From Escherichia phage GEP001: 64,000 bases of DNA. Below the pieces are notes generated by a model. It ran no database searches. It was not told the origin of the DNA and saw nothing but the letters and a program-made list of their open reading frames with translations. Shown piece by piece: positions 750-12,878 of the stretch. The stretch lies in the sequence record PV173775. One strand, given 5' to 3'. Position numbers and translations under genes: made by a program. Every line of letters begins with the position of its first letter. Within the stretch, counting starts at the first letter, position 1.

Positions 750-3446
750 ATGAAAGAATTTTATATCTCTATCGAAACAGTCGGAAATAATATTGTTGAA
801 CGTTATATTGATGAAAATGGAAAGGAACGTACTCGTGAAGTAGAATATCTTCCGACTATGTTTAGGCATTGTAAGGAAGAGTCAAAATACAAAGACATTT
901 ATGGTAAAAATTGCGCTCCTCAAAAATTTCCATCAATGAAAGATGCACGAGACTGGATGAAACGAATGGAAGATATCGGTCTCGAAGCTCTCGGTATGAA
1001 CGATTTTAAACTCGCTTATATCAGTGATACATATGGTTCAGAAATTGTTTATGACCGAAAATTTGTTCGTGTAGCTAACTGTGACATTGAGGTTACTGGT
1101 GATAAATTTCCTGACCCAATGAAAGCAGAATATGAAATTGATGCTATCACTCATTATGATTCAATTGACGACCGTTTTTACGTCTTTGATTTGTTGAATT
1201 CAATGTACGGTTCAGTATCAAAATGGGATGCAAAGTTAGCTGCTAAGCTTGACTGTGAAGGTGGTGATGAAGTTCCTCAGGAAATTCTTGACCGAGTAAT
1301 TTATATGCCATTCGATAATGAGCGTGATATGCTCATGGAATATATTAATCTCTGGGAACAGAAACGACCTGCTATTTTTACCGGTTGGAATATTGAGGGA
1401 TTTGACGTTCCGTATATCATGAATCGCGTTAAAATGGTTCTCGGTGAACGTAGTATGAAACGCTTCTCTCCAATCGGTCGAGTAAAATCTAAACTAATTC
1501 AAAATATGTACGGTAGCAAAGAAATTTATTCTATTGATGGCGTATCTATTCTTGATTATTTAGATTTGTACAAGAAATTCGCATTTACTAATTTGCCATC
1601 ATTCTCTTTGGAATCAGTTGCTCAACATGAAACCAAAAAAGGTAAATTGCCGTACGATGGTCCTATTAATAAACTTCGTGAGACTAATCATCAACGATAC
1701 ATTAGTTATAACATTATTGACGTAGAATCAGTTCAAGCAATTGATAAAATTCGTGGGTTTATCGATCTAGTTTTAAGTATGTCTTATTATGCTAAAATGC
1801 CTTTTTCTGGCGTAATGAGTCCTATTAAAACTTGGGATGCTATTATTTTTAACTCATTGAAAGGTGAACATAAGGTTATTCCTCAACAAGGTTCGCACGT
1901 TAAACAAAGTTTTCCAGGTGCATTTGTGTTTGAACCTAAAGCGATTGCCCGTCGATACATTATGAGTTTTGACTTGACGTCTTTGTATCCTAGCATTATT
2001 CGTCAGGTTAACATTAGTCCTGAGACTATTCGTGGACAGTTTAAAGTTCATCCAATTCATGAATATATCGCAGGAACAGCTCCTAAACCAAGTGATGAGT
2101 ATTCATGTTCTCCGAATGGATGGATGTATGATAAGCATCAAGAAGGTATCATTCCAAAGGAAATCGCTAAAGTATTTTTCCAACGTAAAGATTGGAAAAA
2201 GAAAATGTTCGCTGAAGAAATGAATGCCGAAGCTATTAAAAAGATTATTATGAAAGGTGCAGGGTCTTGTTCAACTAAACCGGAAGTTGAACGATATGTT
2301 AAGTTCAATGATGATTTCTTAAATGAATTATCGAATTACACCGAATCTGTTCTTAATAGTCTGATCGAAGAATGTGAAAAAGCAGCTACACTTGCTAACA
2401 CAAATCAGCTGAACCGTAAAATTCTTATTAACAGTCTTTATGGTGCTCTTGGCAATATTCATTTCCGTTACTATGATTTGCGAAATGCTACTGCTATCAC
2501 AATTTTTGGTCAAGTTGGTATTCAGTGGATTGCTCGTAAAATTAATGAATACCTGAATAAAGTATGTGGAACTGATGGTGAAGATTTCATTGCAGCAGGT
2601 GATACTGATTCGGTATATGTCTGTGTAGATAAAGTTATTGAAAAAGTAGGTCTTGACCGCTTTAAAGAACAAAATGATTTAGTTGAATTCATGAATCAGT
2701 TTGGTAAGAAAAAGATGGAACCTATGATTGATGTTGCATATCGTGAGTTATGTGATTATATGAATAACCGCGAGCATCTGATGCATATGGACCGTGAAGC
2801 TATTTCTTGCCCTCCACTTGGTTCAAAGGGTGTTGGTGGATTTTGGAAAGCGAAAAAACGTTATGCTCTAAACGTTTATGATATGGAAGATAAGCGATTT
2901 GCCGAACCGCATCTAAAAATCATGGGTATGGAAACTCAACAAAGTTCAACACCAAAAGCAGTACAAGAAGCTCTCGAAGAAAGTATTCGTCGTATTCTTC
3001 AGGAAGGCGAAGAGTCTGTCCAAGAATACTACAAGAACTTTGAGAAAGAATATCGTCAACTTGACTATAAAGTTATTGCTGAAGTAAAAACTGCGAATGA
3101 TATAGCGAAATATGATGATAAAGGTTGGCCAGGATTTAAATGCCCGTTCCACATTCGCGGTGTGCTAACTTATCGTCGAGCTGTTAGTGGTTTAGGTGTA
3201 GCTCCAATTTTGGATGGAAATAAGGTAATGGTTCTTCCATTACGTGAGGGAAATCCATTTGGTGATAAGTGCATTGCTTGGCCGTCGGGTACGGAACTTC
3301 CAAAAGAAATTCGTTCTGATGTACTGTCTTGGATTGACTACTCAACTTTGTTCCAAAAATCGTTTGTTAAACCGCTTGCGGGTATGTGTGAATCGGCAGG
3401 TATGGACTATGAGGAAAAAGCTTCGTTAGACTTCCTGTTTGGCTGA
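750..3446 (+). CDS. 43: DNA polymerase gp43 (family B, 3'-5' exonuclease)
   Basis: 898 aa, same length as T4 gp43; N-terminus MKEFYISIETVGNNIVERYIDENGKERTREVEY...; polymerase motifs DxxSLYPS and YGDTDS present. Confidence 0.97.
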   Translation: MKEFYISIETVGNNIVERYIDENGKERTREVEYLPTMFRHCKEESKYKDIYGKNCAPQKFPSMKDARDWMKRMEDIGLEALGMNDFKLAYISDTYGSEIVYDRKFVRVANCDIEVTGDKFPDPMKAEYEIDAITHYDSIDDRFYVFDLLNSMYGSVSKWDAKLAAKLDCEGGDEVPQEILDRVIYMPFDNERDMLMEYINLWEQKRPAIFTGWNIEGFDVPYIMNRVKMVLGERSMKRFSPIGRVKSKLIQNMYGSKEIYSIDGVSILDYLDLYKKFAFTNLPSFSLESVAQHETKKGKLPYDGPINKLRETNHQRYISYNIIDVESVQAIDKIRGFIDLVLSMSYYAKMPFSGVMSPIKTWDAIIFNSLKGEHKVIPQQGSHVKQSFPGAFVFEPKAIARRYIMSFDLTSLYPSIIRQVNISPETIRGQFKVHPIHEYIAGTAPKPSDEYSCSPNGWMYDKHQEGIIPKEIAKVFFQRKDWKKKMFAEEMNAEAIKKIIMKGAGSCSTKPEVERYVKFNDDFLNELSNYTESVLNSLIEECEKAATLANTNQLNRKILINSLYGALGNIHFRYYDLRNATAITIFGQVGIQWIARKINEYLNKVCGTDGEDFIAAGDTDSVYVCVDKVIEKVGLDRFKEQNDLVEFMNQFGKKKMEPMIDVAYRELCDYMNNREHLMHMDREAISCPPLGSKGVGGFWKAKKRYALNVYDMEDKRFAEPHLKIMGMETQQSSTPKAVQEALEESIRRILQEGEESVQEYYKNFEKEYRQLDYKVIAEVKTANDIAKYDDKGWPGFKCPFHIRGVLTYRRAVSGLGVAPILDGNKVMVLPLREGNPFGDKCIAWPSGTELPKEIRSDVLSWIDYSTLFQKSFVKPLAGMCESAGMDYEEKASLDFLFG

Positions 3447-7605: not shown

Positions 7606-9033
7606 GTGGTAGAAATTATTCTTTCTCATCTCATATTTGATCAAGCTTATTTTTCAAAAGTTTGGCCATATATGGATTCAGAATATTTTGAAAGTGGTCC
7701 AGCTAAAAATACATTCAAATTAATTAAATCTCATGTCAATGAGTACCATAGCGTTCCATCTATTAATGCGTTAAATGTTGCATTAGAAAATAGTTCATTT
7801 ACTGAAACAGAATATTCTGGTGTAAAAACACTTATTTCGAAACTAACCGATTCTCCAGAAGACCATAGCTGGTTAGTAAAAGAAACAGAAAAATACGTTC
7901 AGCAAAGGGCGATGTTTAATGCTACGTCTAAAATAATTGAAATTCAAACTAATGCTGAGCTTCCTCCGGAAAAACGCAATAAGAAAATGCCAGATGTAGG
8001 TGCTATTCCTGACATCATGCGCCAAGCATTATCAATTTCATTTGATAGTTACGTTGGTCATGATTGGATGGATGACTACGAAGCACGTTGGCTATCTTAT
8101 ATGAATAAAGCTCGTAAGGTTCCATTTAAACTCAAAATTCTAAATAAAATTACTAAAGGCGGAGCTGAAACTGGAACACTGAATGTTTTAATGGCTGGTG
8201 TTAACGTTGGTAAGTCATTAGGTCTGTGTTCATTGGCAGCAGATTATTTGCAGCTCGGACATAATGTTCTTTACATTTCCATGGAAATGGCTGAAGAAGT
8301 CTGTGCTAAACGTATTGATGCTAATATGCTTGATGTTTCTCTTGATGACATTGATGATGGGCATATTTCTTACGCTGAGTATAAAGGAAAAATGGAAAAA
8401 TGGCGTGAGAAATCTACTCTCGGTCGTTTAATCGTTAAACAGTATCCTACTGGTGGAGCAGACGCTAATACATTTCGATCGCTTTTAAACGAATTGAAGC
8501 TCAAGAAGAATTTTGTTCCAACAATCATTATTGTCGACTATCTAGGTATTTGTAAATCTTGCCGCATCAGAGTTTACTCAGAAAATAGTTACACAACTGT
8601 TAAAGCCATCGCAGAAGAATTGCGTGCTCTGGCTGTTGAAACCGAAACTGTTCTTTGGACTGCAGCACAGGTTGGTAAGCAAGCTTGGGATTCTTCTGAT
8701 GTTAACATGAGCGATATTGCAGAATCTGCCGGTCTTCCAGCAACAGCCGATTTTATGCTTGCGGTCATTGAAACTGAGGAGTTAGCAGCTGCTGAACAAC
8801 AACTCATTAAGCAAATCAAATCACGATATGGCGATAAGAATAAATGGAATAAGTTTTTGATGGGTGTTCAAAAAGGAAATCAGAAATGGGTAGAAATTGA
8901 ACAAGATTCTACTCCAACTGAAGTGAACGAAGTGGCAGGTTCACAGCAGATTCAAGCTGAGCAGAATCGCTATCAAAGAAACGAATCCGCTCGAGCTCAG
9001 TTAGATGCTTTGGCAAACGAATTAAAATTTTAG
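7606..9033 (+). CDS. 41: replicative DNA helicase gp41 (DnaB-like)
   Basis: 475 aa; GTG start; Walker A GVNVGKS; sequence recognised as T4 gp41. Confidence 0.95.
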   Translation: MVEIILSHLIFDQAYFSKVWPYMDSEYFESGPAKNTFKLIKSHVNEYHSVPSINALNVALENSSFTETEYSGVKTLISKLTDSPEDHSWLVKETEKYVQQRAMFNATSKIIEIQTNAELPPEKRNKKMPDVGAIPDIMRQALSISFDSYVGHDWMDDYEARWLSYMNKARKVPFKLKILNKITKGGAETGTLNVLMAGVNVGKSLGLCSLAADYLQLGHNVLYISMEMAEEVCAKRIDANMLDVSLDDIDDGHISYAEYKGKMEKWREKSTLGRLIVKQYPTGGADANTFRSLLNELKLKKNFVPTIIIVDYLGICKSCRIRVYSENSYTTVKAIAEELRALAVETETVLWTAAQVGKQAWDSSDVNMSDIAESAGLPATADFMLAVIETEELAAAEQQLIKQIKSRYGDKNKWNKFLMGVQKGNQKWVEIEQDSTPTEVNEVAGSQQIQAEQNRYQRNESARAQLDALANELKF

Positions 9034-9073
9034 TTTACAAGCCGACAAGACTATGGTATAGTAGTCTTGTCGG
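9033..9073 (+). promoter_or_regulatory. early promoter with 11-bp perfect inverted repeat (ccgacaagact / agtcttgtcgg) bracketing the -10
   Basis: GTTTAC 9033-9038, TATAGT 9057-9062, arms 9042-9052 and 9063-9073. Confidence 0.55.
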
Positions 9074-9091
9074 TTAAATGAGGAGATTTTT

Positions 9092-9274
9092 ATGGAATTG
9101 GTAAAGGTAGTTTTTATGGGGTGGTTTAAGAATGAAAGCATGTTTACTAAAGAAATCACAATGATGAAAGATGACGTTCAATGGGCTACTACTCAATATG
9201 CTGAAGTTAATAAAGCGCTAGTTAAAGCTTTCATTGATGACAAGAAAGTATGCGAAGTGGATTGCCGAGGATAA
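9092..9274 (+). CDS. dmd: Dmd antitoxin (inhibitor of RnlA/LsoA RNase toxins)
   Basis: 60 aa; MELVKVVFMGWFKNESMFTKEITMMKDDVQWATTQYAEVNKALVKAFIDDKKVCEVDCRG recognised as T4 Dmd (61.5). Confidence 0.8.
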   Translation: MELVKVVFMGWFKNESMFTKEITMMKDDVQWATTQYAEVNKALVKAFIDDKKVCEVDCRG

Positions 9275-9275
9275 T

Positions 9276-9533
9276 ATGCATATTGTTTTATTTAAACCTA
9301 CTCCGTATAACGTCAGGAAAAATACTCAATTCAAAGCACTTATCGCAGATACGTGGGAATTGGTATTAGATATTCCAGCAGAAGAAAGCCCTCCATTTGG
9401 TCGAGTGGAATTTATTAAGTTTGCTGTGCGCCCTACAAAGCGGCAGATTCGCCAATGCAAAAGATACTTTCGTAAAATCGTCAAGTTAGAGAAACAGTTT
9501 GTAACATGTGATTATACAGAAGTTTTAAAATAG
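9276..9533 (+). CDS. hypothetical protein (basic, 85 aa)
   Basis: ATG preceded by GAGGA RBS immediately after dmd stop; the track ORF start at 9234 overlaps dmd. Confidence 0.55.
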   Translation: MHIVLFKPTPYNVRKNTQFKALIADTWELVLDIPAEESPPFGRVEFIKFAVRPTKRQIRQCKRYFRKIVKLEKQFVTCDYTEVLK

Positions 9534-9535
9534 TA

Positions 9536-9578
9536 GTTTACAAGCTGATAGAGTTGTGTTATAGTAATTCTATCAGCT
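9536..9578 (+). promoter_or_regulatory. early promoter with 10-bp perfect inverted repeat (agctgataga / tctatcagct) bracketing the -10
   Basis: GTTTAC 9536-9541, TATAGT 9560-9565, arms 9543-9552 and 9569-9578. Confidence 0.55.
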
Positions 9579-9596
9579 AATCGCGGAGAAAAGAAA

Positions 9597-9851
9597 ATGA
9601 TGCTAGTTAATAGAGAATATCAGTTTAAATCAGAAGAAGATTTGGAAAAATTCGCGAGCGGTTGTGAACTGAATAGACGCACAGCTAAAGTCATAGGATT
9701 AAAACCCTTTACAGTTCTAGATTGTGAAGTTTCTAAATTCCGCAGAGGGTGTTCTATTAGCGGTCATGCTCTGGTTGATGGGAACACATTTTTCTTTGTT
9801 TTTAGCGTCAGAGAACTTTTATTGATTAACGAACTTGAGGAAATAAAATAG
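9597..9851 (+). CDS. hypothetical protein (84 aa)
   Basis: ORF with RBS-like gcggagaaaag upstream. Confidence 0.5.
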   Translation: MMLVNREYQFKSEEDLEKFASGCELNRRTAKVIGLKPFTVLDCEVSKFRRGCSISGHALVDGNTFFFVFSVRELLLINELEEIK

Positions 9852-9879
9852 TTTACTTTTGTTTTAAACATGTTATTAT
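9851..9879 (+). promoter_or_regulatory. early promoter (GTTTAC, 17 bp, TATTAT)
   Basis: gtttacttttgttttaaacatgttattat. Confidence 0.5.
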
Positions 9880-9903
9880 AGACCTATCAAAACAAACGAG
9901 TAA

Positions 9904-10095
9904 ATGGAGAATAAAATGTCTAAAGTATCAGGTTATCAATTATTAACACAAGAACAACGTTCAGAGATGGATTCTTTACAAGAACGGTGTCAGCATAGAA
10001 ATAACGCACTTGATTCATTTTTATTAGTTGAATATGAAAACTTGTGCTCTAGACTTGAAAAAGAATATGTTCATCAACATGGAGGAGAAGAATGA
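9904..10095 (+). CDS. hypothetical protein (63 aa; alternative start at 9916)
   Basis: Two in-frame ATGs; GGAG RBS favours the ATG at 9916. Confidence 0.5.
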   Translation: MENKMSKVSGYQLLTQEQRSEMDSLQERCQHRNNALDSFLLVEYENLCSRLEKEYVHQHGGEE

Positions 10096-10142
10096 AACTG
10101 AAATCACCAATTATTGTAATTTGTCTGTTTGCTTCTACTAGT

Positions 10143-10171
10143 GTTTACTTTTGTTGAAAATTGAGATACTA
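10143..10171 (+). promoter_or_regulatory. early promoter (GTTTAC, 17 bp, TACTAT)
   Basis: gtttacttttgttgaaaattgagatactat. Confidence 0.5.
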
Positions 10172-10198
10172 TAAACATAAACTACTGAGGAGATTATC

Positions 10199-10492
10199 AT
10201 GAAAAAATTTATCTTTGCTGCAATTTTTGCTTTATCTTCTTGCGCTGCTCAGCCTGCTATGGCGGGTTATGACAAAGATTTGTGTGAGTGGTCTATGACT
10301 GCAGATCAGACTGAGGTTGAAACTCAGATTGAAGCCGATATTATGAATATCGTTGAGCGTGATCGTCCTGAAATGAAAGCTGAAGTGCAAAAACAACTTA
10401 AGTCTGGTGGTGTAATGCAGTATAATTATGTTCTGTATTGCGATAAAAACTTTAATAATAAAAATATCGTAACCGAAATCACAGGCGAATAA
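10199..10492 (+). CDS. sp: Spackle periplasmic protein (superinfection exclusion, lysozyme inhibitor)
   Basis: 97 aa with N-terminal signal peptide MKKFIFAAIFALSSCAAQPAMA; recognised as T4 Sp. Confidence 0.75.
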   Translation: MKKFIFAAIFALSSCAAQPAMAGYDKDLCEWSMTADQTEVETQIEADIMNIVERDRPEMKAEVQKQLKSGGVMQYNYVLYCDKNFNNKNIVTEITGE

Positions 10493-10493
10493 T

Positions 10494-11126
10494 ATGATTT
10501 ATTATATGCACAAAAATCCACCGTTTAAATATGGTAAATTTCCTGATGCACAATGTTATAATATAACACCTAATGAAAATAACCGTGGATATCTTATTGG
10601 CACAATTTTTGTAATTGTTAAAGATAACGAAATCGTTGCCTGGGCAGATTTTAAAGGTACAACATATGATGTTAATCCGGTGCCTTTCACATATTACAAT
10701 TTAATGGATTTGGCATACGATTATAATTGGTTTAATCATGATACTTTGGCTCATATTGAAGGTGTAGGATTTGATATTTCATATTCGGAATACACTTTAA
10801 GCCCTATGAGTCGAGCCCATAAAGAACCTGAATATTTTTCATTTAGGAAACGTGTAAACTTTAAACGCAGCACAGAGTATATCGGTGGAATCTTTGTTAA
10901 AGATAATCGAATTATTCGTATTAATTATCCTTTGAGCGTTAGTCAAAAAGATATTGATGTTGATTTAGATTTCACTGAAAATAATATTAATAATATTGCT
11001 TCTGTGTATTTTGGTATCGATCACAAAATTGTAATATGTGGATATGAATTACCGTTTGAAGAACAGCCTAAAGTAAAAGTTTCTATTGACGATCAAATTT
11101 TTAATGCTTTTATGAATAAAGGTTAA
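10494..11126 (+). CDS. hypothetical protein (210 aa) with two internal VKDN-type repeats
   Basis: C-terminus SIDDQIFNAFMNKG is shared with the next ORF. Confidence 0.6.
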   Translation: MIYYMHKNPPFKYGKFPDAQCYNITPNENNRGYLIGTIFVIVKDNEIVAWADFKGTTYDVNPVPFTYYNLMDLAYDYNWFNHDTLAHIEGVGFDISYSEYTLSPMSRAHKEPEYFSFRKRVNFKRSTEYIGGIFVKDNRIIRINYPLSVSQKDIDVDLDFTENNINNIASVYFGIDHKIVICGYELPFEEQPKVKVSIDDQIFNAFMNKG

Positions 11127-11127
11127 T

Positions 11128-11484
11128 ATGTATAGTTCTGAATTTTCATATTTAAAAATGGAAAAAATTTCATACGATTTTATAGATGAAAAGGTTTATT
11201 ACAGTTTCCATGAACCGCGTTTTAATAGTGAGGTTGGGTTTATTGTAGTAAAAGACAATTTCATTTTAAAGATATATTCGGCATTAAAGGATTTTCACTA
11301 CGAAAATATTAACCTAAAATTTGATAAAGAAAACGTTCGTAATTGTGCAGTAACAATTACAGGAAATAAAGGTACATGTGTTATGCTATCTGATGAAATT
11401 AATGATTTGCTAAATGATGTAGAAAAGGTTGCTGTTCCATCGATTGATGACCAAATTTTTAATGCTTTTATGAATAGAGGTTAA
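11128..11484 (+). CDS. hypothetical protein (118 aa), paralog of the preceding ORF
   Basis: Shares the VKDN repeat and C-terminus SIDDQIFNAFMNRG. Confidence 0.6.
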   Translation: MYSSEFSYLKMEKISYDFIDEKVYYSFHEPRFNSEVGFIVVKDNFILKIYSALKDFHYENINLKFDKENVRNCAVTITGNKGTCVMLSDEINDLLNDVEKVAVPSIDDQIFNAFMNRG

Positions 11485-11485
11485 T

Positions 11486-11650
11486 ATGAAAACATATAAA
11501 GAATTTATCAAAGAAGATATGGTAGCTGGAGATTCGGGTGGTAATCCTGAAAATATCTCTACTGGAACAACGTCAGGCGCTGTAGTAAATAAAGGCCCTG
11601 AACAGATTCCTAAAAAGAAAAAAGAGGAATCTAAAGAAAAAGAAGAGTAA
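11486..11650 (+). CDS. small hypothetical protein (54 aa, lysine/glutamate-rich C-terminus)
   Basis: ATG overlaps the preceding stop (TAATATG); below track cutoff. Confidence 0.35.
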   Translation: MKTYKEFIKEDMVAGDSGGNPENISTGTTSGAVVNKGPEQIPKKKKEESKEKEE

Positions 11651-11652
11651 AA

Positions 11653-12681
11653 ATGTCATCAATACCTTGGATTGATAATGAGTTTGCATATCGTGCATTA
11701 GCTCATTTACCTAAATTTACACAAGTAAATAATAGTTCAACTTTTAAATTGCGGTTTAGATGCCCTGTTTGTGGAGATTCAAAAACCGACCAAAATAAAG
11801 CTCGTGGATGGTATTATGGCGATAATAATGAAGGAAATATTCATTGTTATAACTGTAACTATCATGCACCAATCGGAATATATTTAAAGGAGTTTGAACC
11901 CGATTTATATCGTGAGTATATCTTTGAAATAAGAAAAGAAAAAGGTAAAAGTCGTCCAGTAGAAAAACCTAAAGAACTTCCTAAACAACCTGAGAAGAAA
12001 ATAATTAAATCTCTTCCGTCATGTGTTAGATTAGATAAACTGGCGGAAGACCATCCAATTATAAAATATGTAAAAGCTCGCTGTATTCCAAAGGATAAAT
12101 GGAAATATCTTTGGTTTACATCTGAATGGCCTAAATTAGTTAATAGTATAGCACCAGGAACATATAAAAAGGAAATACCTGAGCCTCGTCTTGTTATTCC
12201 AATTTATAATGCTAATGGAAAAGCTGAGTCTTTTCAAGGACGTGCATTAAAGAAAGATGCTCCTCAAAAATATATCACCATCAAAGCTTATCCTGAGGCA
12301 ACAAAAATCTATGGTGTTGAACGAGTTAAAGATGGTGATGTATATGTTCTAGAAGGACCTATAGATTCACTTTTTATTGAAAATGGTATAGCTATTACAG
12401 GTGGTCAATTAGACCTAGAAATTGTTCCATTTAAAGATAGACGAGTATGGGTTTTGGATAATGAACCTCGTCATCCTGATACTATTAAACGAATGACTAA
12501 ATTAGTTGACGCAGGAGAAAGGATTATGTTTTGGGACAAATCTCCATGGAAATCAAAAGATGTTAATGATATGATTAGAAAGGAAGGTGCAACCCCTGAA
12601 CAAATTATGGAATATATGAAAAATAATATTGCGCAGGGGTTGATGGCTAAAATGCGGCTATCTAAATATGCTAAGATTTAA
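11653..12681 (+). CDS. 61: DNA primase gp61
   Basis: 342 aa; zinc ribbon CPVCGDS...HCYNCNYH; TOPRIM motif VLEGPIDSLF; recognised as T4 gp61. Confidence 0.95.
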   Translation: MSSIPWIDNEFAYRALAHLPKFTQVNNSSTFKLRFRCPVCGDSKTDQNKARGWYYGDNNEGNIHCYNCNYHAPIGIYLKEFEPDLYREYIFEIRKEKGKSRPVEKPKELPKQPEKKIIKSLPSCVRLDKLAEDHPIIKYVKARCIPKDKWKYLWFTSEWPKLVNSIAPGTYKKEIPEPRLVIPIYNANGKAESFQGRALKKDAPQKYITIKAYPEATKIYGVERVKDGDVYVLEGPIDSLFIENGIAITGGQLDLEIVPFKDRRVWVLDNEPRHPDTIKRMTKLVDAGERIMFWDKSPWKSKDVNDMIRKEGATPEQIMEYMKNNIAQGLMAKMRLSKYAKI

Positions 12682-12878
12682 ATTAACCCAACTAAAGCAA
12701 ATGCTAAATCTACGAATGTATCAAGAGTAATTACTGGAATACTAACGCCATGAGCAATAGCAACTGGCGATAAAACAAAATTCCAAAGTAAAATTCCTAT
12801 CATAGCAGAAATAGTAAAAGCTATACGTTTTTTATTACCTTTGATGGCATTAACAAGTGCCATTAATTTTTGTACCAT
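12678..12878 (-). CDS. antisense small membrane protein (66 aa)
   Basis: Strong Shine-Dalgarno AAGGAGG 7 nt upstream of ATG on the minus strand; two hydrophobic segments; the only convincing minus-strand gene in the early region. Confidence 0.55.
   Translation of the reverse strand: MVQKLMALVNAIKGNKKRIAFTISAMIGILLWNFVLSPVAIAHGVSIPVITLDTFVDLAFALVGLI

Follow-up and report, generated by a model that had tools for sequence, protein, structure and literature searches.

A half-size paralog of the anti-DarT factor AdfA and a shared C-terminal tail in a variable slot of T4-like phages

Why should two neighbouring genes of a phage end in the same peptide and pass into the next gene through the same few bases? 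The question is raised by Escherichia phage GEP001 (record PV173775), of which a stretch of 64,000 nucleotides, hereafter the window, was analysed. Two open reading frames (ORFs) encoding 210 and 118 amino acids (aa) lie there between sp and the primase gene, on the + strand like all features described below. An earlier note, made from the letters alone, had pointed out their common ending, and it is indeed present: the first protein terminates with SIDDQIFNAFMNKG, the second with SIDDQIFNAFMNRG, and GGTTAATATG comes next after each. The note saw in this pair a recent duplication or a shuffling of one module within a variable region, and in the tail a possible interaction motif. Paralogy, module, hot spot and tail motif all survive the analysis reported here, whereas the recency of the duplication does not, and the larger gene had not been recognised as adfA. 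This larger gene is already known. We found no earlier description of the half-size paralog, of a module in three copies, of the invariant tail that three protein families share or of the presence/absence polymorphism bounded by that tail; these extend a known family and are not a new kind of system. The explanation that we favour, and hold to be fairly probable as a whole, is that a two-module AdfA and a single-module relative combine variable specificity modules with a docking tail, and that they are gained and lost through the repeat encoding this tail.

AdfA, its half-size paralog and their module

The 210-aa ORF (adfA, 10494-11126; PHROG 3781) matches Pfam PF23813 with 459.3 bits (E 1.7e-138, covering 1-210, cut-off 27 bits) and is 72% identical to T4 gp61.2, which identifies it as AdfA (gp61.2, anti-DarT factor A), encoded in T4 by gene 61.2. 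With T4 gp61.2 (PF23813; Johannesman et al., 2025) it shares the locus between sp and 61.1, the length class and the tail. Two modules in about 208-216 aa characterise AdfA, an architecture found in the 210-aa ORF but not in the 118-aa ORF, which has one module and the tail. Both ORFs stand in the genomic position of adfA, directly after sp and before 61.1 and the primase gene, and the same slot is used in T4, T2, RB69 and VR25. The product of adfA binds and neutralises the DNA ADP-ribosyltransferase toxin DarT1 in an allele-specific manner (PMC11825919), and few other DarT inhibitors are known from phages.

The 118-aa ORF, which we call mini-adfA or mini (11128-11484; PHROG 4122, E 1.1e-72; RB32ORF033c), is annotated as hypothetical throughout, with the single exception of a remark in the RB18 record ("some similarity to gp61.2; RB32ORF033c"). 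It scores 34.4 bits against the Pfam AdfA profile (cut-off 27), at profile positions 113-211, and shares with AdfA the C-module and the tail, but has one module instead of two. In BLASTP, AdfA 98-210 aligns with mini 4-118 at 35% identity over 123 aa (E 1e-11). When both are deprived of the tail, AdfA 101-194 and mini 1-102 reach a Smith-Waterman score of 64, compared to 29 +/- 5.5 for shuffled sequences, none of which attains 64 in 2000 trials. Similarly, a hidden Markov model (HMM) of the mini family without tail gives the C-halves of AdfA a median of 12.2 bits (best decoy 9.7) and the N-halves a median of 13.6 bits (best decoy 8.5), and 0 of 720 shuffled decoys reach the real medians. The similarity thus extends beyond the last 15 codons, and these three lines of evidence together mark the 118-aa protein as a true AdfA paralog.

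The AlphaFold2 (AF2) model of mini is confident, with a predicted local distance difference test (pLDDT) score of 83.6 and a predicted template modelling score of 0.72. It comprises strands 8-17, 22-29, 34-42, 45-51 and 56-64, helix 67-78, strand 84-87 and helix 89-102, followed by a low-confidence break and a tail helix at 106-115. The AdfA model is of moderate confidence (pLDDT 69.9) and shows in its N-half strands 2-8, 20-25, 38-43, 46-51 and 57-64, helix 67-81 and strand 87-90, and in its C-half strands 100-104, 113-121, 126-136, 139-146 and 151-159 and helix 162-173, then a disordered stretch and a tail helix at 198-207 with low pLDDT. We divide AdfA into an N-module (aa 1-100, 10494-10793) and a C-module (aa 101-194, 10794-11075). 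The order of the elements is the same, and the hairpin-strand-helix-strand spacing almost identical, in both halves of AdfA and in mini, an agreement in the order of predicted secondary-structure elements and not a template modelling score. Foldseek matches at E <= 1e-3 among predicted viral structures were limited to two AdfA entries, one ortholog of mini and a VR25 protein of 145 aa.

The tetrapeptide VKDN occupies the predicted central hairpin turn in all three cases, at aa 42-45 (10617-10628) and 135-138 (10896-10907) of AdfA and at aa 41-44 of mini (11248-11259), where it lies between strands 34-42 and 45-51. It occurs four times in the six-frame translation of the window, three of them here, with 0.006 occurrences expected in 328 aa. 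The longer pattern G.I.VKDN.I, which the note had counted twice in the first protein and once in the second, is exact in copies 2 and 3, but copy 1 is two residues longer (G.I.V.VKDN.I). One module present in three copies across two genes, as the note had proposed, is supported by the profile tests and by the predicted secondary structure, and the N-half of AdfA would on this evidence be a third, more diverged copy (Smith-Waterman comparison of the two halves with one another: p about 0.01).

The age of the duplication is another matter. The paralogs are only 35% identical, with weak similarity outside the tail, and a mini lineage 44-49% identical to that of the window (tblastn) adjoins a 145-aa gene in Gaprivervirus. 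When mini of the window is compared with mini of VR25, a phage of another genus, synonymous sites prove saturated, and the ratio of nonsynonymous to synonymous substitution rates (dN/dS) is low for adfA (0.09-0.42) as for mini (0.1-0.32). On these observations, the duplication is ancient and not recent, and each lineage is under purifying selection. The dN/dS values, together with the occurrence of mini as sole family member in T2-type phages, also indicate that mini, whose length is 116-125 aa across genera, is a live gene. One copy, at a T2-type locus on metagenome contig UMED01024097.1 (L045), has lost one nucleotide of an A-run (A6 to A5) and with it the reading frame, and may be a pseudogene or an assembly error.

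The residue that governs the specificity of AdfA for DarT1 differs among these phages. RB69 AdfA binds DarT1 in a bacterial two-hybrid assay only once R164H is introduced, His being the residue of T4 (PMC11257639, PMC11825919), and this substitution is reported to enable DarT1 neutralisation (PMC11825919). In the family alignment, the equivalent position is Asn167 in the window (codon 10992-10994), versus His in T4 and Arg in RB69, and it would sit in the helix of the module. The His of the DarT1-neutralising allele is found neither here nor in mini, where the aligned residue is Asn72.

The window allele is a mosaic: its first ~60 residues (aa 1-62, 10494-10680) are near-identical to those of RB69, a Mosigvirus, and very unlike those of T4, and the remainder, with the short linker before the tail, is T4-like. 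This suggests intragenic recombination between genera. In addition, mini-adfA comes after adfA in each of the five sampled alleles that have Asn at the specificity position (the window and loci L001, L002, L018 and L031), a small sample of related phages, and His alleles occur with or without mini.

The tail and the cassette that it bounds

The note had counted three mismatches between 11085-11130 and 11443-11488. The count is exact for this 46-nt span, and the full direct repeat (family D1) measures 49 nt, of which 45 are identical (92%). Its first copy (11082-11130) covers SIDDQIFNAFMNKG, the stop and the start of mini, and its second (11440-11488) covers SIDDQIFNAFMNRG, the stop and the start of 61.1. 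Only one of the four differences, the K/R exchange, alters the protein; the other three are synonymous. Right upstream of the repeat, ungapped identity is 20-50%, as expected for unrelated AT-rich DNA.

Conservation in the family is highest not in the globular part but in a predicted C-terminal helix of 9 residues. Within the 12-residue shared tail, DDQIFNAFM is strictly invariant in 31/31 cluster representatives of AdfA and mini, both window ORFs included, in an alignment where overall identity goes down to 26%. Among the window, T4, RB69, VR25 and other loci, six of the eight degenerate codon positions of this peptide vary without a single amino-acid change; some of these loci were found through a DNA pattern encoding DDQIFNAFM, and unconstrained protein searches agree. 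The invariance of the tail under purifying selection is thereby established. The linker before the tail is variable in length and sequence, both linker and tail have a pLDDT of about 50, and I, F, F and M at i, i+1, i+4 and i+5 would form one face of a predicted amphipathic helix. An invariant peptide with synonymous-only change, a variable linker and a one-sided helix are typical of a tethered docking peptide, and the tail, which behaves like a protein-level motif as the note had supposed, points to a shared docking motif.

This peptide seems confined to a few small phage proteins. Its degenerate DNA pattern was found 0 times in 185,579 bacterial and archaeal genomes, and the 13 viral and 12 metagenomic loci that carry it all belong to AdfA, mini-AdfA or a family of about 145 aa. 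When 1.84 billion representative proteins were searched exhaustively with HMMER, only six clusters were retrieved, all of them AdfA or mini-AdfA, the 145-aa family falling below the threshold. These HMMER and DNA-pattern searches, aimed at families other than these three that carry the tail and at a host protein that it might mimic, yielded neither.

The 145-aa family (PHROG 8539, VR25_038) is present in 86 Gaprivervirus and Dhakavirus records, in the slot directly after sp. Like mini and AdfA it ends with the invariant tail, and it has a GYFLVDSDDRIV hairpin where VKDN stands; it matches the mini model in structure (Foldseek E 2.9e-4). It differs in that its body is barely alignable, with non-tail sequence similarity at noise level, and it is absent from the window. 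That it corresponds to the N-half of AdfA, which would make AdfA a fusion of two VR25 genes, was considered and is unsupported by BLASTP, hhalign and HMM tests.

The slot itself is a copy-number hot spot, as the note had expected of a variable region. Its content is far from fixed, and relatives carry one gene, the other, both or neither: sp-adfA-mini-61.1 in the window, teqdroes, NR1, Shfl2, Sf21, RB18 and Bas38; sp-adfA-61.1 in T4, ECML-134 and PE37; sp-mini-61.1 in T2; and sp-61.1 in Sfk20. By tblastn, full-length AdfA (>= 60% identity) is found in 486 phage-collection records and mini (>= 75% identity) in 298, so that the stand-alone single-module form is very common (~300 of the phage records searched, including T2). 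A 301-nt probe of the adfA-mini junction is contiguously covered in 157 records. We estimate that ~157 records have both genes, ~141 only mini (T2-type) and few neither, whereas at least 123 Tequatrovirus records (T4-type), plus Mosigvirus records, have only adfA. Phages with both genes or with either one are thus roughly equal in number and those with neither are rare, which makes this slot a natural system to study the shuffling of anti-defence repertoires. It was stated that T2 "naturally lacks an adfA homolog" (PMC11825919); since T2 carries mini, this holds for the gene with two modules only.

This polymorphism is established, as are the repeats that border it. We compared 29 tails, taken from 19 Tequatrovirus-type loci (5 on viral contigs and 14 in named phages, the window among them). 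Their last two codons vary with the gene that follows and not with the body that precedes. Tails preceding 61.1 end with AGA GGT TAA in 19/19 cases, the body before them being adfA in 8 and mini in 11, and those preceding mini end with AAA GGT TAA, AAA GGT TAG or AGA GAT TAA in 10/10. When adfA stands alone, its tail is nucleotide-identical to the commonest mini tail (8/8), for T4-type and window-type adfA alleles alike. This is what unequal crossing-over between the tail repeats would leave, adding or removing exactly the 358-bp unit (mini body and tail) that these repeats bound. After sp, a 13-nt remnant of the junction reads AGAGGTTAGTATG in T2 and AGAGGCTAATATG in Sfk20. Recent gene conversion is not needed to explain the near-identical 3' ends, since the two window tails show 3 differences compared to 6.2 expected from identical peptides and phage codon usage (P = 0.078).

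Possible functions and competing explanations

The mechanism that we propose is the following. AdfA would consist of two copies, and mini of one copy, of a small module in which a five-strand beta meander, with VKDN at a hairpin turn, is followed by a helix and a strand. The variable module would give target specificity, the known specificity residue 164 lying in its predicted helix, and the invariant tail, on its variable and poorly predicted linker, may dock on a conserved partner or surface. Mini would most likely be a stand-alone toxin binder with a specificity different from that of AdfA. Finally, the tail-coding DNA and the Shine-Dalgarno/stop/start junction would provide the short homology for gain and loss of the 358-bp mini cassette, adfA might be gained or lost likewise at a shorter junction, and such events could have generated the four arrangements seen in relatives. 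One could go further, if rather doubtfully, and see in the tail helix a portable adaptor of three T-even small-protein families, docking on one highly conserved hub (a conserved surface of ART-fold toxins, or a component of the phage replisome, DarT being active at the fork), with the fast-evolving beta modules giving specificity and the same 45 nt serving as recombination joint. If true, one sequence would have two jobs, and the slot would be a cassette system for anti-toxin specificities.

Several points weigh against the explanation that we favour. Without its last 16 residues, the 118-aa protein no longer matches the Pfam AdfA profile, and hhalign comparisons between tail-less module alignments give probabilities below 20%, because these alignments are shallow (effective number of sequences 1.4-2.8); shuffle and decoy tests replaced hhalign for module homology. 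For the three modules, the evidence consists of the order of secondary-structure elements and of modest profile scores, and the AdfA model has a pLDDT of only 69.9. Because of the close relationship among many sampled genomes, the counts of tails and downstream genes do not represent independent events. Furthermore, T2 without adfN cannot plate on DarTG1 cells (PMC11825919), and as T2 carries only mini, the latter does not neutralise that DarT1 at native expression. T4 without adfA shows no DarTG1 phenotype either, which its authors read as AdfA alleles being tuned to other DarT homologs (PMC11825919). Toxin binding by mini, docking by the tail and recombination at the tail are what we infer.

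Mini could first be a partner or modulator of the two-module AdfA, or of the 145-aa protein of Gaprivervirus, in a hetero-oligomer of modules, and not an independent inhibitor. Indeed, the tail-bearing 145-aa protein of VR25 adjoins mini in a way that resembles a split two-module protein, and the five alleles with Asn at position 164 all have mini alongside. However, mini stands alone in T2-type phages, and AdfA stands alone in T4 and RB69 and is active alone from a plasmid (PMC11825919), so that we judge this reading unlikely. A stand-alone binder of a different target is what we would infer from the module and specificity-position helix kept in mini, from purifying selection and from its place in an island of toxin inhibitors.

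The tail could also be kept solely for a reason of DNA or RNA, as a recombination joint, translational coupling signal or RNA structure, its peptide having no function of its own. The last two codons of the tail do serve at the same time as the Shine-Dalgarno sequence for the following gene, which they accompany, and the tail DNA is almost invariant inside Tequatrovirus, but between genera it differs at six of eight degenerate positions while the peptide stays constant. RNA folding at both junctions is no better than for shuffled sequences (z = +1.5 and +0.5) and the junctions have no Rfam match, so that RNA structure or a known RNA family was rejected. A purely nucleic role is hence quite improbable to us, and we keep the view that the peptide itself would dock.

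It is even less probable that AdfA and the 118-aa protein are unrelated except for a tail acquired by recombination, with VKDN arising by convergence or chance. The tail dependence of the Pfam match and the low tail-less hhalign probabilities would fit this reading, but the tail-less Smith-Waterman score and HMM medians were equalled by none of the shuffles and decoys, predicted secondary-structure order and spacing agree between modules, and VKDN is seen three times, in the same predicted hairpin turn, where 0.006 are expected. Lastly, that the 118-aa ORF is a functionless, decaying remnant of a partial adfA duplication is barely credible: mini is missing in many relatives including T4 and one metagenomic copy is frameshifted in an A-run, but its dN/dS, its conserved length, its confidently predicted fold and its retention as sole family member in ~141 T2-type records all speak against decay.

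Other phages offer comparable cases. AdfB of the Vibrio phage ICP1 is a small protein reported to block DarT by direct binding in an allele-specific manner (PMC11481870, as summarised in PMC11257639), and is likened to AdfA as a functional analogue only. The T4 anti-toxin-antitoxin (anti-TA) island (dmd, tifA/61.4, adfA), with its recombination-driven gene gain and loss (Srikant et al., 2022; PMC9391042), is the same neighbourhood, where small toxin-inhibitor genes vary in copy and content via short-homology recombination; what distinguishes the present case is that the homologous stretch lies inside the genes, at their coding 3' end. The repeat is a translated, peptide-coding segment with a ribosome-binding junction. 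The promoter-early stem-loop (PeSL) cassettes, reportedly described by Arbiol and colleagues in 2010, are said to mediate modular shuffling in T4-type phages. They are likewise delimited as exchangeable units by short repeats at gene boundaries, but unlike them the repeat described here has no promoter or stem-loop.

The surrounding island

The window belongs to a Tequatrovirus, a T4-like phage, and over positions 10100-11750 it shares 99.8% identity with Escherichia phage ECO07P2 and 97-98% with numerous other phages. The genes follow each other as gene 41, dmd, a 61.4-like gene, a goF-like ORF, a 63-aa ORF, sp, adfA, mini-adfA, 61.1 and gene 61. AdfA sits here in the known anti-toxin island dmd-61.4-sp-adfA-61.1-primase, the dmd-tifA-adfA neighbourhood having been named the anti-TA island (PMC9391042). 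The helicase gene 41 (7606-9033) is followed by dmd (9092-9274), by the 61.4-like gene with a DUF7279 domain, located between dmd and the goF-like ORF, by the goF-like ORF itself (9597-9851; PHROG 2980, E 3e-20) and by the 63-aa ORF (9904-10095; PHROG 37915). The variable slot is flanked upstream by sp, or spackle (10199-10492; Pfam T4_Spackle, E 7.6e-46), whose stop lies 1 nt before the adfA start, and downstream by 61.1 (11486-11650, 54 aa; PHROG 1823, E 7e-34), named gp61.1 in the annotation of relatives, which also gives gene 61 as the DNA primase (11653-12681).

From sp through 61.1 every start codon lies one base past the previous stop (TAATATG), and a two-base gap separates the 61.1 stop from the gene 61 start. 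In 9000-12800 no terminator-like site was found, and promoter-like matches were weak and at background frequency, so that a promoter or terminator inside the adfA/mini interval was rejected. Given these short gaps and the lack of a terminator-like site, the genes are probably co-transcribed and translationally coupled. Two near-identical promoter-like sites, at 9034-9062 before dmd and at 9537-9565 before the goF-like ORF, each with TTTACA, a 17-nt spacer, TATAGT and an upstream TG, may be early promoters of the island.

The two ORFs at 9597-9851 and 9904-10095, between the 61.4-like gene and sp, are extra genes missing in most relatives, including teqdroes and T4; only ECO07P2, PP01 and JoYop matched the window starting at position 10100. 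The region 9597-10095 is a further variable cassette site of the same anti-toxin island. In Gaprivervirus and Dhakavirus, a 61.4-like gene (MFVLTQFSKA...) follows the tail-bearing gene or genes (2859-3080 in VR25, L019; loci L006-L029), through an unchanged TAATATG junction, so that the genes of the anti-toxin island stand there in another order than in T4. The 54-aa protein of 61.1 is labelled "major capsid (domain-containing) protein" in several GenBank records, which looks like a propagated error. Over residues 8-53 this protein matches the C-terminus of PHROG 2086, a family of 156 aa, and gp61.1 of RB69 has 92 aa, with an N-terminal extension.

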